A stretch of DNA of 59,978 nt from a virus (Duplodnaviria > Caudoviricetes): IMG/VR virus record IMGVR_UViG_3300036781_000826, positions 1 through 59,978 of that record, one strand, 5' to 3'. The position numbers were made by a program, and so were the translations under genes. This document shows positions 1-59,978 of the stretch, in pieces. The stretch's first letter is position 1, and each line of letters opens with the position of its first letter. Below the pieces are notes generated by a model, which saw nothing but the letters and a program-made list of their open reading frames with translations, did no database searches and was not told the DNA's origin.

Positions 1-1179
1 TCAGCCTCGCCTTTTCCGATCCACCTTCCCAGCTTCGGGATTATTCTGGGACTGCTCGACATCTTCTAGCGCGGCCAGCACGTCGGCGTCCATGGCGTGA
101 ACGTAGCGGTTGGTCGACTTCGGATCGAGGTGGCCGAGCAGGCGCTGCGTCACCTTCATGTTGCCGGATCGGCGCTGGATCGTTGTCCCAGCGTGGTGGC
201 GGGCGCCATGGATCACGCGGCCCTGGCGGATACCGGCGCGCTTGGACGAGGTGCGCAGGCGCTGCTGCAGGCCATAGTAGGTCAGCGCCATGAGCTTGAT
301 CGCGTCTTCGCCGGTGGCCTCGTCCTTCACGATCTCCTCGACGTACCAGATGGTGTCCAGGTCCGCGGCGGAGGCCCGGCCGATCCTGGCCGCGATTTCG
401 CGCGCGTCGGCGGCGAGTAGCGGAACAGAATGCGGCACGTCGAACTTGCGGCCCTTGATCCACGACAGCCTGGCCGGGGCGCCATCGGCCTCAGGGGTGA
501 AGGCGTCCAGCGGGAAGAACAGCTCCCCGAACCGCAGGCCGTAGGTCAGCAGCAGGCGCAGGGCCAGCGCCGCGGTCGGCCCGTTCTCTCCGATCCATGC
601 CGCGCGCTCGTCGCTCGAATAGACCCGCACCGTCTCGCGCGGGGTGTCGAGCGTCAGGTCGGCCCATGCGATCGCCGGCAGGCCCTTGGCCTCCCAATGG
701 ATCGCCGCCCGCCGCAGGATCGGGCGCAGGGTCTGGATCACGTCGCGGTTCACCGTGGCGTTGGCGACGGCGTACTCTTTGGCCCGGACCATGGCGCCCC
801 GGCGGTCCTTGCGATCCTTGCCCTTCTTGAATGTCTGACCTCGGCGCTTCTGGATCGCCGTAGAGATGACCGCCGTCGTGATCTCGGCGAGCCGGATGTC
901 CTTCGGGAAGAGCTTCACCAGGCGCTTGACCCTGGTCAACTGTTGGTCGGCGTCGCCTCGGTGCTGGCCGTGCTCCTGCCAGTACTTGCCGGCCGCCAAG
1001 TCGAGCGTGAGCTGTGAGGCCTCGCCTAACTTCCCATCGGCCGCCGCGATGCGCTGCCGCTCTTCGAACCTCTCCGCTGCGCGTCGGGTCGTCTGTCCGG
1101 TAGAGCCAGTATGCCGGCGCCCCTGGATGACGAAGTCGAATTGAAAGAAGCGGCTCTTGGCCGGCTTGTAGACCGACAT
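1..1179 (-). CDS. int: Tyrosine recombinase (phage integrase)
   Basis: Catalytic motifs GLRFGE, HGARH, LLGH, NRY; N-terminal arm-binding-like segment. Confidence 0.93.
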   Translation of the reverse strand: MSVYKPAKSRFFQFDFVIQGRRHTGSTGQTTRRAAERFEERQRIAAADGKLGEASQLTLDLAAGKYWQEHGQHRGDADQQLTRVKRLVKLFPKDIRLAEITTAVISTAIQKRRGQTFKKGKDRKDRRGAMVRAKEYAVANATVNRDVIQTLRPILRRAAIHWEAKGLPAIAWADLTLDTPRETVRVYSSDERAAWIGENGPTAALALRLLLTYGLRFGELFFPLDAFTPEADGAPARLSWIKGRKFDVPHSVPLLAADAREIAARIGRASAADLDTIWYVEEIVKDEATGEDAIKLMALTYYGLQQRLRTSSKRAGIRQGRVIHGARHHAGTTIQRRSGNMKVTQRLLGHLDPKSTNRYVHAMDADVLAALEDVEQSQNNPEAGKVDRKRRG

Positions 1180-1433
1180 GGCTCGGCAGGCCCTTCGCTG
1201 AGATAGGCGCGGAGATCACGCTCTGTGTAGGCGTCGCGCCGGCCGCGCGGGACCGACCGGACGATCCCGTCGGCAGTCATCTCCCCAAGGGTCTTCACGT
1301 CAACCCCGATGAGCGCAGCGGCGTCTTTAGCTGTGGCTATCGCTGTGGACGAGAATACGGCATCGAACCGAGCTTCGGTGATCCGGCCCAGATCCGAGCT
1401 AACGGTGAAGTCGGTCGGCGCCTGGCGGGTCAT
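1026..1433 (-). CDS. Excisionase-like HTH protein, 3' end overlapping int
   Basis: AKDAAALIGVDVKTL...YTERDLRAYL MerR/Xis-type HTH directly upstream of int. Confidence 0.7.
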   Translation of the reverse strand: MTRQAPTDFTVSSDLGRITEARFDAVFSSTAIATAKDAAALIGVDVKTLGEMTADGIVRSVPRGRRDAYTERDLRAYLSEGPAEPCRSTSRPRAASFNSTSSSRGAGILALPDRRPDAQRRGSKSGSASRRPMGS

Positions 1434-2266
1434 GCAGCAGCGTCTTTCGCCTCTTGCGGCAGGCCGGTGGCGAGGAGGGCCGCGTCGAGGTCGTCGGCGA
1501 CCTTGCGAATGCGGCCGGCCGCTGCGCCTAGACCCTGGTAGGCATGGAGAAGCCCGACGCGCTCAACGGCCCCCACGAGCGCCCCGATGCGGGAGGCCCT
1601 TGCCATGCTACCTGCCCAGTCGTGCAGGGAAAGGCCGCTGGCCGCTTCAAAGGCCGCGACCTGGGCGAAGACTTCGGCCGACTTCTTGGTGCGGCGCTCG
1701 ACCTCGGCGGCAACCCGTTCCTCGATCTTCTCGCGCTCCTTTTCGAGCGCCTCGCGAGCGGCCCGCTGTCGGTCGTCAGCCTCGCGGCGTGCGATCTCTC
1801 GCTGAGCGTCGTCAGACCGGCGCAGAAGGGCCGCCAGGAAACCACGGTCGCAGGGCTTCGCGTCGGTCTTCTCGGCCTCGCGCAGGGTGCGCCACTTCTT
1901 GCCGTCGAACTCGCGAACCCCCCACGCGGGCGGGACCTCGCTAAGGTCGTGGATGACGCCGGGCGCGACATGGACCCACCAGCGCTCGCAATAGGCGGCG
2001 ATCCGCTCCGCCTTGGTCGGGTCCAGGGCTTCGCGTTTCCAGTCGCTGCGGCTGATCTTGATCTCGACGCCGTGCAATTCCAGCCCGCGCGACGGCCAGA
2101 GCGACATCATCACCGCATCGGCGTAGCGAACCTTGCCAACCATTGACCCTGTCGCCGGCGCCACCTCCCACATGATCGCCCACTCCTGGGCGGTCCAGCG
2201 GGCTAGCATCGCCTTGCGGATGTCTGAGGCCGTCACCGGCGCTGGCTTGACGAGTCGTTCGCTCAC
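1430..2266 (-). CDS. MmcB-like PD-(D/E)XK nuclease-family protein
   Basis: YADAV...GVEIKISRSDW...K motif; coiled-coil C-terminus. Confidence 0.7.
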   Translation of the reverse strand: MSERLVKPAPVTASDIRKAMLARWTAQEWAIMWEVAPATGSMVGKVRYADAVMMSLWPSRGLELHGVEIKISRSDWKREALDPTKAERIAAYCERWWVHVAPGVIHDLSEVPPAWGVREFDGKKWRTLREAEKTDAKPCDRGFLAALLRRSDDAQREIARREADDRQRAAREALEKEREKIEERVAAEVERRTKKSAEVFAQVAAFEAASGLSLHDWAGSMARASRIGALVGAVERVGLLHAYQGLGAAAGRIRKVADDLDAALLATGLPQEAKDAAA

Positions 2267-2406
2267 AGCCCCGCCCCCCGTCGATCCCCGTCGATCCAGA
2301 AATCACAGCCCGGAAGCCCACGGCCACGCGCGTTATCCAGCACAGGGCATGTACAGCCTTGATCGAGAGCGGAGTCGCTTCCGGGGGTTGGGGTGGGAGG
2401 GGTCAC
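2263..2406 (-). CDS. Small phage protein (PGS..A...GCTCPVLDN)
   Basis: GTG start overlapping upstream stop; Cys motif. Confidence 0.45.
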   Translation of the reverse strand: MTPPTPTPGSDSALDQGCTCPVLDNARGRGLPGCDFWIDGDRRGAGL

Positions 2407-54956: not shown

Positions 54957-55427
54957 GTGGCCGACGACACCGACCGCGCGCCGCATCGCGCCCGCAGCCG
55001 CTTGCCGGGCGACGACGCCCTGCACGAAGGCCATTACCGGGAAATCCTCGCCAGGCTTGGCGGCCTCGAGGATCGGGTGAGCGAGATCCGCGAGGATTCC
55101 CGTGAAGCCCGCGACGCCACCACGAGGCTTGCCGCCGCGGCCGAGGCCCAGGACCTGCCCACGCGAATCGCCGAGGCTTTCGCGGCCGTCCGAGGTGAGG
55201 AGGTGCGCGCCCGCGCGGACCTGCAGAACACCTCGAACAAGATCACCGACGAGATGCGCCGAGGCCACGACGACCACGAGGAGCGCCTGAAGCGCCTGGA
55301 GACCTTCAAGGACAAGGTCCAGGGCGCCGGCGGCTTCCTCAGCTTCATCGCCAAGAACATGCCCTGGCTGGTGGCGATCGCCATGGCCGGCCTGGCCGGC
55401 CTGGGCTTCAAGGCGCACAATCCGTGA
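54957..55427 (+). CDS. Coiled-coil protein with C-terminal TM (lysis cassette)
   Basis: Heptad pattern and terminal hydrophobic helix. Confidence 0.6.
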   Translation: MADDTDRAPHRARSRLPGDDALHEGHYREILARLGGLEDRVSEIREDSREARDATTRLAAAAEAQDLPTRIAEAFAAVRGEEVRARADLQNTSNKITDEMRRGHDDHEERLKRLETFKDKVQGAGGFLSFIAKNMPWLVAIAMAGLAGLGFKAHNP

Positions 55428-56014
55428 CCCTGGCCAGCATCCGTTCCGCGAACCCGCTGGCGGCGTTCTGCATCACCAAGACCATCGGCCTCGAGGGCGG
55501 CCTGGTCGACAGCGCGGCCGACCCGGGCGGCCTCACCGACTACGGGATCTCGTTGCGAGCGGCGCTCGCGCAGGTCGCCCTGCACCCCGACGAGCTGGCG
55601 CTCTACGACGTAGACCACGACGGCCACCTCGACCGCCGCGACATCGCTGGCCTGACCCAGGACGAGGCGGCCGACATCTACCTGGCCGACTGGTGGACGC
55701 CGGGTTGGTACGCCCGGATGGCGCCCCAGGCGATCGCCTGGAAGTGCTTCGACATCGCGGTCAACACCGGCCCCAACCGCGCGGCGCGCATCCTCCAGCA
55801 GGCGCTGTGCGACGTGGGCGCTGCCGTCCCGGTGGATGGCGTCGTCGGGCCGGTGACGGGGCTCACCGTGCGCGGGCAGGCCAGCAAGGACCGGGGTGTC
55901 CGGCTGCTGGCCGCCATCCGGGCCGAGCAGGCCAAGTTCTACCGCGGTCTCGTAGCCGCGCAACCCAAGCTCAAGACCTTCCTGGCCGGCTGGCTCAACC
56001 GCGCCACCGCCTGA
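55424..56014 (+). CDS. Endolysin, glycoside hydrolase family 108
   Basis: EGG...DPGG.T.YGI; FD.AVN.G; DG.VGP.T; GWLNR; EF-hand-like insert DVDHDGHLD. Confidence 0.92.
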   Translation: MTLASIRSANPLAAFCITKTIGLEGGLVDSAADPGGLTDYGISLRAALAQVALHPDELALYDVDHDGHLDRRDIAGLTQDEAADIYLADWWTPGWYARMAPQAIAWKCFDIAVNTGPNRAARILQQALCDVGAAVPVDGVVGPVTGLTVRGQASKDRGVRLLAAIRAEQAKFYRGLVAAQPKLKTFLAGWLNRATA

Positions 56015-56187
56015 TGCCTCGAGACCGCGACGGCCTGTTCTTGCTCGTGGCCACCGTCGTCGCTCTCCTCATCCTTTTCCTTTTGGCCAAGCTGGTCCTG
56101 AACAGGGGTTCCCATGCGTCTCTTCTTCGCCGTCGCCGCTCTGCTGATCGCAGCTACGTCCGCGAGCGCCGCGCCGGCCGCGCTTGA
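56014..56187 (+). CDS. Small single-TM protein
   Basis: TGATG-coupled; hydrophobic helix and basic tail. Confidence 0.45.
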   Translation: MPRDRDGLFLLVATVVALLILFLLAKLVLNRGSHASLLRRRRSADRSYVRERRAGRA

Positions 56188-56719
56188 TTGCAACCAGTTC
56201 CACATCGACCCGGCGGCTAACCAGCAACTCGCGCCCACGGCGGCGACCCATCCGCCGGGCTCCTGCCACATGCGCCACGCTGCCAACGGGATGCAGCTCC
56301 CCGACCCTCTGTGCACGCCCGGAGCCGTCAATCCGACGGTCACCGGAGACGTGCTGCGCAATCCGAAGTTCCGCACCACCTGCGTCCGTGACAAGGGCAC
56401 CTCGGCCGATGCCAAGCGCCAGACCTACGTCTGGTATGGGATCACACCGCCGGCCAACAACGCCACCGGCGCGACCCAGATTTGCGAACTCGACCACCTG
56501 GTCAGCATCGGTCTGGGTGGCTCCGACGACCTGGCGAACATCTGGCCGCAGTGCGGCCCTGCGAACGTCCAGGTCGGCCAGCGCGAGTTCAAGGTGAAGG
56601 ACGCCCACGCCGAGCTTGGCCTGATGCGCGACATCAAAGCTGGCGCGGACCTGCCGACGATCCAGCGGAATGTCGCGCAGGACTGGACGCAGTTCATCGT
56701 GGCGCCCGGCGCCCACTGA
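56114..56719 (+). CDS. Exported HNH-like nuclease
   Basis: Signal peptide ending ASA; ELDHLVSIGLGG....NIWPQ; six Cys. Confidence 0.75.
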   Translation: MRLFFAVAALLIAATSASAAPAALDCNQFHIDPAANQQLAPTAATHPPGSCHMRHAANGMQLPDPLCTPGAVNPTVTGDVLRNPKFRTTCVRDKGTSADAKRQTYVWYGITPPANNATGATQICELDHLVSIGLGGSDDLANIWPQCGPANVQVGQREFKVKDAHAELGLMRDIKAGADLPTIQRNVAQDWTQFIVAPGAH

Positions 56720-56773
56720 AATCCCGAGTTCTCCCGCGCTCAGCGGGCCTTCCTGACATCGTTGGAGAGAAAA

Positions 56774-57112
56774 ATGGAACACCCACAGTTCGCCTACACC
56801 GGCGCGACTCCGCCGAAGGGCTACGTCGGGTTCGTCAACATCCAAGAGACCGAAGGCGGCGTGCGCTTCAGCATTCGAAGCGAGGGTGAGGCACCGACGC
56901 AAGCCGAGTTCACGCTTCCTCGCGACGAGGCGGTGGCCCTTCTCGGGAAGGCCTTGGTCGGCCTGGGCGGTCCGCTGAAGCACGACTATTGGATGCCTGG
57001 CGAGGCCGACTGCCCGAAGGACATCAAGGCCGGGAACGGCGAACTTCGCACGCTCCGGTGCAAGCGCTGCTGCCTCGACAATCCGCGCAGCCAAATCTGC
57101 ACGCCAGGCTGA
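56774..57112 (+). CDS. Hypothetical protein with C-terminal Cys cluster
   Basis: GGAG RBS; C...CKRCC...C. Confidence 0.6.
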   Translation: MEHPQFAYTGATPPKGYVGFVNIQETEGGVRFSIRSEGEAPTQAEFTLPRDEAVALLGKALVGLGGPLKHDYWMPGEADCPKDIKAGNGELRTLRCKRCCLDNPRSQICTPG

Positions 57113-57186
57113 CCAACAGGCGAAGGCGGCTTCGGCCGCCCCGCCACCCCATTCGCCCGATCACGGGCATCCCCTGGAGACCCACC

Positions 57187-57597
57187 ATGAAACTCCCCAC
57201 CTTCGCGGGGCTCGCCCTCGCATGTCTGAGCCTGGGCGCCTGCTCGACGCTCGCACCCTTGACCGGCAACCCCGTCGCTGACGCCAAGACGGTCGCCGCC
57301 AATGCTGCTGTGGCCAACAGCGCCCAACTGGATTCGCTGGGCACGCTGATCGACAAAATCAACACCGCCCTGCTCGATCACTGCAGCGGCTCGGTGAACC
57401 TGAACTTCGCCCCGCCGGCCCCTCCCGGTTTCACCGGCAACCTGCAATGCACCTCGACCGCGAGCCAAGGCGGCATGGTGCCCCTGGCCTCGATCCAGGC
57501 GCTGGCCAACGGCACCGCGACGCTCAGCACGACCGGCAAGAACTCGGCGTCGGGCTCGCTCACGGTGAGCACGCCCAACTCTCCCCTGAAGCAATAG
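57187..57597 (+). CDS. Lipoprotein
   Basis: Lipobox LGAC; GGAG RBS. Confidence 0.8.
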   Translation: MKLPTFAGLALACLSLGACSTLAPLTGNPVADAKTVAANAAVANSAQLDSLGTLIDKINTALLDHCSGSVNLNFAPPAPPGFTGNLQCTSTASQGGMVPLASIQALANGTATLSTTGKNSASGSLTVSTPNSPLKQ

Positions 57598-57605
57598 GCC
57601 GCCCC

Positions 57606-57839
57606 ATGGACACTCCCGAATCCACACTCACCGCCATGCTTGTCGATGGCGAAGCCCACACCGAACTCTTGCGGAAGATCGCCCTTGTCGGCGGTGATCT
57701 TCGGCGCAGCGTGGAGGCCCTGCTGGAGTCGCCAGAGGGTCGGGCGCTCCCGGCCGATGTAGCCGGTGATCTCGGCGCCAAGGCCATCGCCTTCCATGCG
57801 GCAGTGGCCGACCTGGCGCGGGACAAGGCTCAGCCGTGA
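57606..57839 (+). CDS. Hypothetical protein
   Basis: Operon position. Confidence 0.5.
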   Translation: MDTPESTLTAMLVDGEAHTELLRKIALVGGDLRRSVEALLESPEGRALPADVAGDLGAKAIAFHAAVADLARDKAQP

Positions 57840-57937
57840 AGCCTCTCTTCGAAAGCACCGTCATCGTCCTGCTGGTGGTGGCCGCCATGGGCCTGGCGGT
57901 GACCATCGGCGCCGCTATCGCGAGGGCGTGGCCATGA
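57836..57937 (+). CDS. 33-aa single-TM peptide
   Basis: GTGA and ATGA coupling on both sides. Confidence 0.45.
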   Translation: MKPLFESTVIVLLVVAAMGLAVTIGAAIARAWP

Positions 57938-58782
57938 GCCTGTCCAACGCCGACCTGGCGGTGCTGGTGTTGATCGCAGGCGACGCCGATGTGATCGATG
58001 GCCAGCCTGGCGTCAGCTCCGGCGGCAACCCCGTGATGCCGCCGACCGGCGATCCAGCGATCAGCTACCTGACGGCCGCCCACTTCGAACCCCTGGCCCA
58101 GATCCGGGCCAACGACCTGTTCGCGGTGGACGCCGACAACCAGTACTACGGCCTGGTCTGCCGGTGCACGGCCGCGGTCGGGGCCCTGATGCCCGGAGAC
58201 ACCCTGATCGCCATCAGGGGCACGCTGAGCGCCATGGAGTGGCTGAACAACCTGGGGGCCATCTTTCCCGTGGCAAATCCCGAGGGCTTCGGCGGCAGCG
58301 TCGGCGGCGGCTTCCTGGGCGTGTTCGACAGCATGACGCTCTCGGACATGAGCGGCAAGCACATCGCAGGGAACTTCTGGGCGAACCTCGTCGGGCTCGC
58401 CAAGGGGTCAACGCGGCTGTTCCTGGTGGGCCACAGCCTCGGAGCGGCCTTGGCTGGGCTCATGGCCCCTCGGCTGCAACAGGCGCTCCTGGGCGTCCCC
58501 TGCGAGCTGATCCCGGCGTTCTTCGCACAGCCCAATATCGGGGCGTTCGGTTTTGGCGAAGGATTTCTGAAGTCGGTCCCGGCGTTCCATGCTGTGGCCT
58601 TCGAGGCAGACGTAGTGCCCCAAGTCCCCGGCTTCCCGTTCGAGCGCCTGAAGGCCGGCGGCCCGACCCAGAACGTGATCGCGCTGCCGAGGGGAGGGCC
58701 GGGCGCTCCGCCGGCGCCGGAGTTGGACTTCGTGACCAACCACGACCCCCACACCTATAGCGCGATGCTCCTCGCAACCTGA
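57934..58782 (+). CDS. Class 3 lipase (alpha/beta hydrolase)
   Basis: IAIRGT...EW..N; GHSLG; DVVPQVP; C-terminal H. Confidence 0.88.
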   Translation: MSLSNADLAVLVLIAGDADVIDGQPGVSSGGNPVMPPTGDPAISYLTAAHFEPLAQIRANDLFAVDADNQYYGLVCRCTAAVGALMPGDTLIAIRGTLSAMEWLNNLGAIFPVANPEGFGGSVGGGFLGVFDSMTLSDMSGKHIAGNFWANLVGLAKGSTRLFLVGHSLGAALAGLMAPRLQQALLGVPCELIPAFFAQPNIGAFGFGEGFLKSVPAFHAVAFEADVVPQVPGFPFERLKAGGPTQNVIALPRGGPGAPPAPELDFVTNHDPHTYSAMLLAT

Positions 58783-58812
58783 ACGCCGCCGTCTCTCTCC
58801 AGCGGTGCGTAG

Positions 58813-58850
58813 AGCCCGGTCTGTCCCTTCGCGGGGATGGCCGGGCTTTT
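58813..58850 (+). terminator. Intrinsic terminator ending late operon
   Basis: AGCCCGGTCTGTCCC...GGGATGGCCGGGCT followed by T run. Confidence 0.75.
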
Positions 58851-58857
58851 CTGCGTT

Positions 58858-59550
58858 TCAGGTCTTCGTCTTTTCCTTGGCTGCCTCTAGCGCCGCACTC
58901 ATAGCGGTTTGCGCATGGACAGCCGGAGTCGCCTTGGCTGCCGGCTTGCCCCGCGTGGATTTCGCCAGGCCAGGGGGCCATTGGACCTCGGTGACGTAAT
59001 CGGCGTGCCACTTCAGTTCGGCGGGAGGCTGGCTCTTCTCGCAGTGGATCAGCCGCACCTGCAGGCCCGCGATGCGCGCGTGCTTCATCGCTGGCACGCA
59101 GTCGGTGTCAGCGGTGATCAGCGTCACGCGATCGACAGAGCGCCGCTCCGAGAAGGTTGCCATGTCGAGGCCGATCCGCATGTCGACGCCCTTCTGTTCG
59201 AAGTCTGGCTCGAAGTCGGCGTCTGTGAGAGCCTTGGTCGCCACTGGTATCCGGCGGGGCTTGTAGCCGCGGAACTTGAGAACGCCACGCCGGATCGCAA
59301 ACAGTTCTCGCGTGGCCAGCTCTTTCAGCCATCCATCGTTGGGCAGGAAGACCTTCGCAGCGCCGCTCACGGGCAACTGAACTGTTCCGGAATAGGGTGC
59401 GCAGTCGTAGTAGAGGATCCTGAACAGGTCTTCGTCCCCATGGACGCAGGCGTGGGCCACGGCCTCGATCAGATCATTGGAATAGTGGAGTCCCGCAGCC
59501 ATGGACCTGGCTCGCAGGTGACCTCCGTCGATGAGCACTGCGGTTTTCAT
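58858..59550 (-). CDS. NYN (LabA/DUF88, PIN-like) ribonuclease
   Basis: LIDGG; RILYYDC; EQKGVDMRIGLD; TADTD.VPA.K.AR..G. Confidence 0.92.
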   Translation of the reverse strand: MKTAVLIDGGHLRARSMAAGLHYSNDLIEAVAHACVHGDEDLFRILYYDCAPYSGTVQLPVSGAAKVFLPNDGWLKELATRELFAIRRGVLKFRGYKPRRIPVATKALTDADFEPDFEQKGVDMRIGLDMATFSERRSVDRVTLITADTDCVPAMKHARIAGLQVRLIHCEKSQPPAELKWHADYVTEVQWPPGLAKSTRGKPAAKATPAVHAQTAMSAALEAAKEKTKT

Positions 59551-59580
59551 AGAAAACCCCCCGGTGTTGCCACCGGGGGG
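59551..59580 (-). terminator. Terminator-like hairpin directly before NYN start codon
   Basis: CCCCCCGGTG-GCAA-CACCGGGGGG-TTTTCT-ATG on minus strand. Confidence 0.8.
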
Positions 59581-59624
59581 CTTCAGAAAGGTGCCCGCCT
59601 ACGGGCGTAGCGGATATGAGCCGC
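59551..59624 (-). ncRNA. Candidate structured leader or antitoxin RNA
   Basis: Hairpins GCGG/CCGC and GCCCG/CGGGC plus terminator, downstream of TTGACT (59648-59653). Confidence 0.45.
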
Positions 59625-59678
59625 AGATGTCGTGACCCGCGGCTCGAAGTCAATACGATTCGCCTGGTGAGGGTTCCG

Positions 59679-59978
59679 TTAATTCGTCGCAGAGCCCAGC
59701 CACGGCCCCTTGCTCGCATCCCATCCCGCAGCCTCGGCCGCTTCGATCTGACGGCGCTCTTCCTCCAGGTCCTCGCGCGATGGCGGCCACCGCTTCGACG
59801 GCTTGTACCTCCAGTCCTTCCAAGGGTGCTCACCGAAGACGGCTTTGCTCTCCTCTGGGGTGAACATGCGGTTTGAGGTCTGGGGCTCGGCGAGGGGTCG
59901 GACTTCGCCGTCGCCTACGATCTTGCCGACGATGGGGACGTGGCCGCCGGGGAAGCCGGGGATTTTGGGGTCGCTCAT
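59679..59978 (-). CDS. Hypothetical protein
   Basis: ORF track; ATG at window edge. Confidence 0.5.
   Translation of the reverse strand: MSDPKIPGFPGGHVPIVGKIVGDGEVRPLAEPQTSNRMFTPEESKAVFGEHPWKDWRYKPSKRWPPSREDLEEERRQIEAAEAAGWDASKGPWLGSATN

Follow-up and report, generated by a model that had tools for sequence, protein, structure and literature searches.

The window considered here, that is the whole stretch of 59,978 nucleotides of a Caudoviricetes virus (IMG/VR record IMGVR_UViG_3300036781_000826), carries a gene for an NYN-domain ribonuclease preceded by its own promoter, by a short structured leader RNA and by an intrinsic terminator (Table 1). The whole unit occupies about 0.8 kb. The sequence features that a first-pass annotation had described on the minus strand between 59653 and 59550 were all found there. 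The unit was also said to lie at the end of a prophage. It is indeed accessory and sits at the prophage end opposite to the integrase, after the lysis gene. Downstream, the hairpin between the convergent NYN and lipase genes is followed by a T-run on the plus strand, so that it is likely to be the terminator of the lipase gene and perhaps also that of the NYN gene.

Table 1. Features of the NYN unit and its surroundings in the window.
Feature	Position	Strand	Remark
GGAAC box	59673..59677	-	20 nt 5′ of TTGAC
-35 box TTGACT	59648..59653	-	belongs to the module's own promoter
Dyad GAGCCGCGGGT-CACGAC-ATCTGCGGCTC	59618..59645	-	spans promoter spacer, -10 region and start site
Conserved single-stranded 5′ part of the leader, ATATCCGCTAC	59607..59617	-	(near-)invariant columns in 72 sequences
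Hairpin GCCCG-TAGG-CGGGC	59593..59606	-	5-bp stem, invariant UAGG loop
Linker ACCTTTCTGAAG	59581..59592	-	short; A/U-rich (..TAT..) in the alignments of most relatives
Terminator hairpin CCCCCCGGTG-GCAA-CACCGGGGGG	59557..59580	-	perfect 10-bp GC stem, GCAA loop
T-run TTTTCT	59551..59556	-	directly abuts the ATG
Covariance-model match	59547..59619	-	77.9 bits, E 8.5e-19
NYN-domain ribonuclease gene	58858..59550	-	230 aa, ATG at 59550
Hairpin between convergent NYN and lipase genes	58813..58847	.	T-run on the plus strand; read from the sequence

The protein is assigned to the NYN/PIN-like nucleases on the basis of a profile score above the curated cut-off, of its predicted fold and of its acidic residues. 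Pfam PF01936 matches residues 99-188 with 30.1 bits (cut-off 24.2) and phrog_5783 matches the protein with an E-value of 1.3e-29; the score for NCBIfam TIGR00288 is 20.1 bits, against a cut-off of 178. The AlphaFold2 model (pLDDT 91.1) comprises a core of ~192 residues and a low-confidence Ala/Lys-rich tail. The best fold matches found with Foldseek are VPA0982 (2qip) and the NYN domains of MARF1 (5yaa, 6fdl), with E-values of 1e-6 to 7e-4, target-normalised TM-scores of 0.61-0.67 and conserved acidic residues. However, sequence identity to these structures is 12-17%, and the window protein has an extra β-rich insert, predicted at about residues 51-112. A profile search of PDB sequences up to an E-value of 1 gave no related NYN chain; its sole match, the sugar-binding transport protein 4rwe_A (E 0.3), is not significant. 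The acidic residues, which had been noted as apparently intact, are so across 42 sequences, where no change occurs at D8, D123, D129 or D148 and conservation of D150 is at least 90%; the catalytic residues are presumably among them. PADLOC 2.0 returned weak partial matches only (NYN PDLC01154, E 1.5e-4; HEC-09, E 0.038).

In the source record, the called gene encodes 214 residues, 16 fewer than the 230-residue open reading frame. The ATG at 59550 is the true start, because relatives start at the same place with the motif M(K/R)xAVLIDGGHLR, which includes the invariant D8. Gene calls for this family are to be corrected accordingly, as the terminator masks the true start. The 10-bp GC stem and its T-run provide the intrinsic terminator that type III toxin-antitoxin systems have between RNA and toxin gene. 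Among relatives, the sequence of the terminator stem varies and its pairing is kept, with 13/13 pairs changed on both sides and 95.4% of the cells paired. A T-rich tail, with T at four or more of the 9 positions that follow the G-rich arm, is found in 78 of 90 leaders. The gap between stem and start codon has a median of 5 nt (6 nt in the window), and the start codon is TTG or GTG in 31/75 loci. A Shine-Dalgarno-like word is confined to the stem in 45/75 loci and absent from another 15. The window agrees with the earlier remark that no Shine-Dalgarno sequence is free, its only G-run near the start codon being located inside the terminator stem.

On the promoter side, a match of at least 5/6 to TTGACA occurs 28-44 nt before ATCCG in 67/75 loci. 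Many relatives have clear -10 boxes (TAGAAT, TAGATT, TATACT) at a spacing of 16-18 nt; a strict TAnnnT is found in only 24/75 loci and the -10 element of the window, ACATCT, is poor. A simple consensus scan of positions 57500-59978 detected no promoter-like or terminator-like site. This negative result speaks against the anatomy as inspected visually, and only the comparison among loci tips the balance in favour of that anatomy. The arrangement GGAAC-N15-22-TTGAC is present in 9/75 loci, including the window, versus 1/75 in a roughly six-fold larger control space; the GGAAC box could possibly be a second promoter element, of the ECF type. The inverted repeat reported over the promoter is present at 59645-59618 as the dyad GAGCCGCGGGT/ATCTGCGGCTC. 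This stretch folds better than its shuffles in the window (z -4.3) and z is below -2 in 17/75 loci. Its sequence is not conserved among loci; from its position, after the -35 box but before the conserved RNA, it is probably DNA of the promoter and not a segment of the RNA. As judged from the near-consensus -35 box, the T-rich tails, the short gap, the TTG and GTG starts and the buried Shine-Dalgarno words, the layout fits the production of much RNA and little protein.

The leader, or small RNA, is predicted to be ~65-70 nt long, with inferred ends. Its consensus fold contains two independent helices only. Of the two small hairpins first proposed upstream of the terminator, GCCCG-TAGG-CGGGC is conserved but GCGG-CTCATAT-CCGC is not: the 5′ arm of the latter falls in a variable stretch, and the minimum-energy fold favours the long dyad over it. 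Folding of the 139-nt leader gives -62.1 kcal/mol (z -3.8), and none of 200 shuffles is as good. The first-pass annotation had made its proposal depend on a conserved leader in homologs, and one strong copy indeed closely precedes the gene both in the window and in 80/80 relatives fetched at 50-67% protein identity. In all 81 sources, which include 9 loci left out of model building, the leader model gives one same-strand match just upstream of the gene (44.6-80.8 bits). The match in the window is the only strong one there. Applied to 10 viral contigs, the model gave 6 strong matches and 1 weak one, and five of five whole genomes have one strong copy each. Covariation in the leader, which the first-pass annotation had proposed to test, was also observed, with 96.6% of the cells paired versus 79.3% in shuffles and 279 double changes in the stems versus 84; none of 500 shuffles reaches the observed values, and slid controls are at most 55% paired. 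In the UAGG hairpin, 99.5% of the stem cells are paired and one pair covaries (CG 71, UA 14 and UG 2 in 87 distinct rows). A 23-nt core, of which ATATCCGCTAC is a part, recurs without change in at least 120 stretches, which belong to more than 10 phyla. The leader is therefore a real, conserved and covarying RNA element tied to the NYN clade. No family of Rfam 15 comes near its gathering score for the leader, which is a new RNA family absent from that release. A search of open-access article texts yielded no NYN gene with an RNA partner. This is in line with the earlier statement that no characterised NYN-RNA system was known.

Several other identities were considered for the leader and set aside. 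A repeated genomic element is at odds with the single strong copy per genome, and a search allowing up to 3 mismatches retrieved the leader alone in 2/3 genomes. Weak model matches elsewhere (26-33 bits) were treated as unrelated; the three that were read correspond to ends of coding sequences with their terminators. A mimic of, or guide to, rRNA was sought by comparing the 27-nt core with the 16S and 23S rRNAs of one carrier genome. Shared or complementary words do not exceed 9 nt, a length matched by 196 of 500 shuffles. Finally, a type I-like antisense action on the NYN mRNA through the 5′ seed was rejected, the mean z being 0.24, with z below -2 in 1/75 loci and the sites scattered.

With regard to genomic setting, the largest cluster of neighbours covers 5 loci only. 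In the absence of a conserved protein partner among the neighbours, the RNA is the only constant companion of the NYN gene. Most copies are flanked by ordinary chromosomal genes, outside any evident defence island; neighbours linked to mobile elements or toxins are found at 11/74 loci of a first set and at 4/37 loci of an independent set. A translation gene is the immediate neighbour at 24/74 loci (raw count) and at 4/37 loci, respectively. The 24 cases involve S16/RimM/TrmD, RsgA, IF3, S20, S9, S12, L28, aminoacyl-tRNA synthetases, RlmN and RNase PH. Five loci, all from Hyphomicrobiales, have the unit within a core ribosomal operon, with rpsP on one side and rimM/trmD on the other. An apparent translational coupling of NYN and rimM stems from an overlap of crude ORF calls and no claim is made of it. 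Within one bacterial family, the RNA occurs in 3 and the protein in 4 of 121 genomes. Cultured carriers include Rhodopseudomonas pentothenatexigens JA575, Aureimonas endophytica CGMCC 1.15367, Pararhizobium sp. O133, Bradyrhizobium liaoningense SZCCT0400 and Mongoliimonas terrestris. Local synteny of the window with its relatives was not found, except for capsid genes near two loci (L012 and L113), where they adjoin the unit. Considering the sporadic carriage, the spread of the core over more than 10 phyla, the prophage location in the window and the capsid neighbours, the unit appears to be accessory and mobile.

More distant relatives of the protein, at 29-35% identity, are encoded by coliphages, by a P2-like phage of Burkholderia and by phages of Streptococcus and Moraxella. 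In 7 of 8 cases examined, they have their own promoter, a structured RNA and a U-run before the start codon, and the RNA sequences differ. In coliphage ev099, the gene directly follows a cI-like repressor. In phiE202 and Javan85, it has the integrase on one side and, on the other, a toxin-antitoxin pair and the repressor, respectively. Of 5426 complete E. coli genomes, 275 contain coliphages with such genes in their lysogeny regions. At least four sequence classes of leader were seen, class II being defined from two loci only (L101 and L113); a scan for class II with a 14-mer, too short a pattern, gave 120 chance stretches, of which 0 had an NYN gene. The RNA unit can also multiply. Two tandem units precede intact NYN genes at L214 and at L224, and L198 has arrays of 3.2, 4.1 and 3.1 copies; among ~190 loci, repeats were found in these three only. 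The core stays invariant where the protein falls to 30-34% identity (L124, L168). When loci were required to have the unchanged core followed by at least 650 nt of sequence, 102 remained; the NYN gene is broken, truncated or missing at 28 of them, a proportion biased by the choice of loci and possibly by frameshifts that are errors of long-read MAGs. Conversely, no NYN gene of the leader clade lacking a terminated leader was seen among the loci examined.

These properties can be compared with those of known systems. Type III systems (ToxIN, CptIN, TenpIN) are composed of a promoter, an antitoxin RNA, an intrinsic terminator and an endoribonuclease gene, with no protein antitoxin. They are carried on mobile elements, their antitoxin is a tandem array of short direct repeats, and antitoxins co-diverge with their toxins. 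The NYN unit shares the order of the parts, the lack of a protein antitoxin, the mobile carriage and, at L214, L224 and L198, the tandem RNA units. In contrast, the window and nearly all relatives have a single RNA unit with no tandem repeat in the leader, the fold is NYN (PIN-like) and not that of ToxN/AbiQ, and the RNA core, rather than changing along with the protein, stays the same from phylum to phylum. [quoted passage not shown] Another comparison is offered by RNases that limit their own synthesis through their own mRNAs, such as RNase E (rne), RNase III (rnc) and Regnase-1, an NYN/PIN-like enzyme which reads stem-loops. There too, a hairpin lies ahead of or within the RNase gene, and the encoded enzyme may recognise it. 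However, those genes are housekeeping and have no strong terminator abutting the start codon, whereas the NYN unit is sporadic, mobile and in places duplicated. A further parallel is AbiF-RCd22 of a Clostridioides difficile prophage, where a structured and conserved ncRNA directly upstream of a toxic RNase-type gene is reported to lower expression and to neutralise AbiF by direct binding, in cis and in trans (PMC12373285). The NYN unit resembles it by its prophage location and by a structured conserved RNA directly upstream of an RNase-type gene. It differs from it in that AbiF is an Abi_2/HEPN protein and two abiF motifs occur in its RNA (PMC12373285), while the window encodes an NYN protein whose leader resembles no Rfam family, the abiF motif included.

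From the observed anatomy, conservation and covariation of the leader, we infer a mechanism in which the leader would throttle NYN synthesis in cis and neutralise the enzyme as an RNA partner, as in type III systems. We would give this reading a probability of roughly 0.4. In such a model, a sigma-70-type promoter would drive the ~65-70-nt RNA, made of the 5′ single strand AUAUCCGCUAC, the UAGG-loop hairpin, the short linker and the intrinsic terminator. Most transcripts would end at the terminator and yield the small RNA. In read-through transcripts, the same hairpin would bury the ribosome-binding region, and very little NYN would be made. The conserved 5′ part would be a putative specific binding site for NYN, through which the abundant RNA would keep the enzyme inactive in trans. 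The leader would thus be a putative RNA antitoxin, type III-like in its action and differently built. Upon loss of the RNA supply, for example when an infecting phage shuts off transcription or when the element is lost, the RNase would be freed. The constant association of leader and gene, the layout suited to much RNA and little protein, the lack of a conserved protein partner, the accessory and mobile carriage, the positions of distant relatives in lysogeny or accessory-gene regions, the ability of the RNA unit to multiply and the asymmetric decay would argue for this double role. Several observations point the other way. An invariant core beside a drifting protein seems unlike the co-divergence of type III pairs; the rpsP-rimM/trmD operon is an odd home for a toxin and most neighbours are housekeeping genes. 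The single RNA unit of the window, the weak PADLOC matches and the negative promoter and terminator scan also count against it.

The main rival reading is that the leader acts in cis only, as an autoregulatory attenuator. NYN would then be an accessory RNase without addictive effect, its substrate being possibly an RNA related to translation. It would bind or cut its own leader, a mimic of the natural substrate, to limit its own synthesis. This is quite possible, if tentative: mimicry of a conserved cellular RNA fits an invariant RNA beside a diverging protein, a terminator and a buried start region are what an attenuator needs, and the translation-gene neighbours of the first set, with five loci inside the rpsP operon, point the same way. 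However, the neighbour signal, given as raw counts, was not repeated in the independent set, and many of the 24 loci share ancestry. Similarity to 16S and 23S rRNA of the carrier genome compared does not exceed chance, and it would be uneconomical for a near-consensus promoter to run into a strong terminator unless the short RNA itself had a function. Sporadic and phage-borne carriage speaks against this alternative as well, and tandem units and arrays fit a housekeeping leader less well. More broadly than the double role of a single leader, the NYN clade with its leaders might represent RNA-protein toxin-antitoxin or defence systems of a class that is both new and widespread, each protein subgroup having its own small RNA. 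The class I RNA would be invariant over more than 10 phyla as a decoy of a universally conserved cellular stem-loop attacked by the nuclease. For phages, the unit in the lysogeny region would be a means of keeping out competitors, and RNA arrays or orphan RNA genes would be elements of immunity against the toxin. Taken as a whole, this extension is rather doubtful.

Other mechanisms appear less probable still. The terminator could be a sensor, NYN being made only upon read-through, as imposed by the antiterminator of an infecting phage, by an altered RNA polymerase or by a small molecule. A strong terminator directly before the effector gene is universal in the family, and the hairpin with its conserved 5′ flank loosely recalls boxA-boxB sites. 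We nevertheless judge such a switch improbable: when the 60 nt before the start codon are folded, both hairpins coexist, by eye, in nearly all of 75 loci; the 5′ arm of the terminator varies freely, which would probably leave no conserved alternative pairing with the invariant part; and 11 single-stranded bases with a 5-bp hairpin, matching nothing in Rfam, are very small for a ligand aptamer. An Hfq-type small RNA acting in trans on host or phage targets of its own, with NYN merely co-located or serving as nuclease partner, would account for the anatomy, in which a conserved single-stranded 5′ "seed" is followed by an A/U-rich linker and by a terminator that ends in U residues. This is very improbable in view of the unenriched pairing of the seed with NYN mRNAs, the chance-level rRNA complementarity, the lack of a second copy in the near-copy search of three genomes and the difficulty of naming a target conserved over more than 10 phyla. 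Lastly, the hairpin might simply end the transcript of the upstream 99-aa gene (59679-59978), the rest being chance. It probably does end that transcript too, since no terminator lies between the stop codon of that gene and the unit. As the sole explanation, this is refuted by the stem covariation and by the leader preceding NYN in 80/80 relatives with unrelated upstream genes.

Whatever the mechanism, a new and strongly covarying RNA family stands, and the succession of an own promoter, a short terminated RNA and then the gene is a family-wide rule down to 29% protein identity. Should the leader prove to be an RNA antitoxin, the RNA-neutralised toxins would come to include PIN-like (NYN) nucleases, and a single RNA unit of ~26 nt would do the job of the processed repeat arrays of known type III systems. 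The two-part unit probably keeps a potentially harmful enzyme in check, and it recurs in many bacterial phyla.

A dedicated structured leader, with a promoter and a terminator of its own, is an obligate companion of the clade of NYN RNases to which the window's gene belongs. Scanning one genome from each species gave 355 relatives, and the best 80 (50-67% identity) were taken further. CGTAGGCG stands 51-97 nt upstream of the start codon wherever that codon could be called and the DNA before it was long enough, 75 cases in all (the window and 74 loci). The consensus fold of 72 leaders, L034, L037 and L080 being omitted for their long linkers, has two helices with 18 pairs, 15 of which vary at both positions. 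A covariance model made from these leaders found a single match in each of 81 sources, including 9 loci outside the training set, always on the same strand as the gene and immediately before it (44.6-80.8 bits). When 90 leaders were aligned to the model, 96.6% of cells were paired (79.3% in shuffles) and 279 cells carried double changes (84 in shuffles), values reached by none of 500 shuffles; such a fitted alignment favours structure, yet the terminator-stem sequence differs almost completely among loci. With the partner columns slid as a control, at most 55% were paired. A T-rich tail follows the stem in 78 of the 90. The conserved, covarying leader that the first-pass annotation had proposed to seek in homologues is therefore present.

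In the window, a 139-nt stretch folds at -62.1 kcal/mol (z -3.8), equalled by none of 200 shuffles. A simple consensus scan of 57500-59978 called neither promoter nor terminator; ACATCT is a poor -10 element, and the terminator hairpin probably went uncalled because pairing of its stem can continue into the T-run.

Positions of the NYN unit, its surroundings and leaders of other classes
Feature	Location	Position	Strand	Remark
Integrase	window	1-1179		opposite end from NYN unit
Endolysin	window	55424-56014		
99-aa ORF	window	59679-59978	-	its stop codon precedes the unit
GGAAC	window	59677-59673	-	
TTGACT	window	59653-59648	-	-35 box
Dyad GAGCCGCGGGT-CACGAC-ATCTGCGGCTC	window	59645-59618	-	
ATATCCGCTAC	window	59617-59607	-	
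Hairpin GCCCG-TAGG-CGGGC	window	59606-59593	-	
12-nt linker	window		-	between GCCCG-TAGG-CGGGC hairpin and 10-bp stem
Perfect 10-bp stem CCCCCCGGTG-GCAA-CACCGGGGGG	window	59580-59557	-	
TTTTCT	window		-	between 10-bp stem and ATG
230-aa NYN ORF	window	59550-58858	-	ATG at 59550
Second-class leader	L101	about 2100-2300	-	
Second-class leader	L113	100-224	+	
phiE202/Mcat4-type leader	L105	2330-2500		
phiE202/Mcat4-type leader	L355	1380-1500		

A match of at least 5/6 to TTGACA lies 28-44 nt upstream of ATCCG in 67 of the 75 loci, and only 24 have a strict -10 box (TAnnnT) at a spacing of 16-18 nt; good boxes among relatives are TAGAAT, TAGATT and TATACT. From this position, transcription would start a few bases upstream of AUCCG and yield a predicted RNA of about 65-75 nt. 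The inferred start thus places the dyad in promoter DNA, as the earlier description of an inverted repeat over the promoter had it. The segment that separates the -35 box from the conserved RNA tends to form a dyad or hairpin (z -4.3 in the window, z < -2 in 17/75 loci), with sequences that vary from locus to locus. Where the dyad is strong, the -10 box tends to be poor. GGAAC occurs 15-22 nt upstream of TTGAC in 9/75 loci, the window included (control, 1/75); this arrangement recalls ECF/EcfG-type promoters, and a second, stress-driven promoter at this site is possible.

The gap between the terminator's final paired base and the start codon (ATG 44, TTG 27, GTG 4) has a median of 5 nt over the 75 loci. 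In 45 of them a Shine-Dalgarno-like word lies solely within the stem; 15 have no such word, and in the other 15 it is partly or wholly free. Throughout the family, start codons hidden by the terminator have probably been called wrongly. The source gene call for the window protein has 214 aa, not 230; 16 residues short at the N-terminus, it would drop the invariant D8.

The window protein scores 30.1 bits against Pfam NYN (cut-off 24.2) and matches phrog_5783 with an E-value of 1.3e-29. Its AlphaFold2 model (pLDDT 91.1) is closest in fold to VPA0982 (2qip), a protein of NYN type, and to the NYN domains of MARF1. Its acidic residues, initially judged intact, belong to a conserved set, D8, D123, D129 and D148 being invariant and D150 at least 90% conserved among 42 sequences. 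For 2155 related protein clusters the sources give no other names than "NYN domain-containing" or "LabA/DUF88", and PADLOC and NCBIfam gave weak matches only. Rfam 15 assigned no family to 58000-59978 (top score 22.6 bits, gathering score 70). The first-pass annotation knew of no characterised NYN system of this kind, and our literature search likewise found no description of the NYN-leader unit. The nearest published analogue found is AbiF with its RNA RCd22 (PMC12373285).

When the 23-nt core of the window-type (class I) leader was searched with one free position, it was found unchanged in at least 120 stretches. The matches listed are labelled Alpha-, Gamma- and Deltaproteobacteria, Acidobacteriota, Nitrospinota, Thermodesulfobacteriota, Dadabacteria, Chloroflexota, Gemmatimonadota, Myxococcota, Meiothermus and Opitutaceae; they hold 114 new loci, 43 of which duplicate earlier ones. 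At 12 of the 114 the downstream DNA was too short. The remaining 102, all with unchanged core, comprise 74 with an intact NYN gene, 3 with a premature stop, 13 with NYN in pieces only or in several frames, and 12 with no similarity to NYN downstream. Five of these 12 retain the leader with the initial 8-30 codons of NYN, the remainder being lost; L128 and L217 are orphan leaders whose promoter and terminator are intact. Conversely, no NYN of this clade lacking a terminated leader was seen among the relatives examined. This asymmetry of decay, biased by the choice of the two sets and with some frameshifts that may be errors of long-read MAGs, is as expected if an intact enzyme always requires the RNA.

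Nearly all loci carry a single RNA unit, and no tandem repeat was found in the window's leader. Two tandem 26-28-nt units precede intact genes in L214 and L224. On a 6.5-kb Hasllibacter MAG contig (L198), a 1-kb block is present three times (1-2300, minus strand), each with a promoter, 3-4 tandem 54-56-nt units made of the core and a GC hairpin without U-run, and only a NYN remnant of about 55 aa. Other roles for the core were rejected: rRNA mimic or guide, by comparison with 16S and 23S of one carrier genome; pairing with the NYN mRNA, by a pairing test; and dispersed repeat, each of five whole genomes examined having one strong copy.

Relatives at 29-35% identity were found in phages (65 records) and plasmids (166 records). 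The gene follows a cI-like repressor and precedes N in coliphage ev099, the position that rexAB occupies in lambda; in phiE202 it has a toxin-antitoxin pair on one side and the integrase on the other, and in Javan85 it is placed between repressor and integrase. The proposed order of promoter, RNA, terminator and RNase extends to seven of eight such relatives (ev099, phiE202, Javan85, Mcat4, a Dorea phage, L115 and L116), where a near-consensus promoter and a 60-90-nt structured RNA with final hairpin and U-run precede the start codon; the eighth, Campylobacter plasmid pCC31, has no clear hairpin. The seven RNAs are unrelated in sequence to class I. Of 5426 complete E. coli genomes, 275 carry the ev099-type leader; no RNA gene is annotated at it there, and it has no Rfam match. 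Closer to the window, L101 and L113 (57-61% identity) are exceptions to class I and share a second leader, composed of AUACUUGAC, a GCCUC hairpin, GAC-n-AUCCUGAG and a terminator. A third class, found in two distant hosts, is formed by the leaders of phiE202 of Burkholderia and Mcat4 of Moraxella (L105 and L355), which have in common AGCCCyUrGCAGUACGCC ... UUGGGCUUUUUU.

In a sample of 121 genomes from one family, 3 give a strong match to the RNA and 4 carry the protein. The class I leader is strong in 6 of the 10 viral contigs with a relative, and capsid genes adjoin the unit in L012 and L113. The window record is itself an IMG/VR provirus, in which replication, terminase, portal, capsid, tape-measure and tail genes follow the integrase. 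Of four small genes beyond the endolysin, the last two, NYN and the 99-aa ORF, are on the opposite strand; the right attachment site is not visible because the record ends at the 99-aa ORF. That the prophage end carries the unit as a moron, an accessory gene, is plausible. Between the endolysin and the unit lie a class 3 lipase gene and two unassigned ORFs of about 200 aa (57766-58782 and 56114-57597, plus strand), which may be further accessory genes.

No neighbour gene conserved across loci was found. In the first set, a translation gene is the immediate neighbour at 24/74 loci, and a transposase, integrase, PIN, RES or RadC gene at 11/74; an independent second set has translation neighbours at only 4/37, mobile-element or nuclease neighbours at 4/37, and otherwise ordinary metabolic genes. 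These counts are raw, so that the link to translation is a lead and not a finding. In five Hyphomicrobiales genera (L005, L009, L014, L023, L074) the unit lies between rpsP (or ffh) and rimM/trmD, within a core ribosomal operon, and its terminator stands ahead of essential downstream genes. The other translation neighbours of the first set are RsgA, IF3, S20, S9, S12, L28, aminoacyl-tRNA synthetases, RlmN and RNase PH. A transposase lies directly upstream in the same orientation at four loci, IS1-like in L021, L022 and L047 (305-307 aa) and of IS1595 type in L013 (324 aa).

Two overlapping readings of the leader may be envisaged. It could serve solely to autoregulate NYN in cis, a tentative account which fits the invariance of the RNA and the copies in a ribosomal operon better than an RNA antitoxin does. 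We rank first, at a probability of about 0.4, that the leader is an RNA antitoxin of NYN. A strong promoter running into a strong terminator is sensible only where the short RNA is a product in its own right, and no protein partner exists. The antitoxin reading is also favoured because the unit is sporadic and mobile, with relatives in lysogeny regions, because the RNA unit is multiplied in places, and because the gene decays while the RNA persists. The leader is inferred to hold NYN output very low in cis, and the enzyme to recognise its invariant part.
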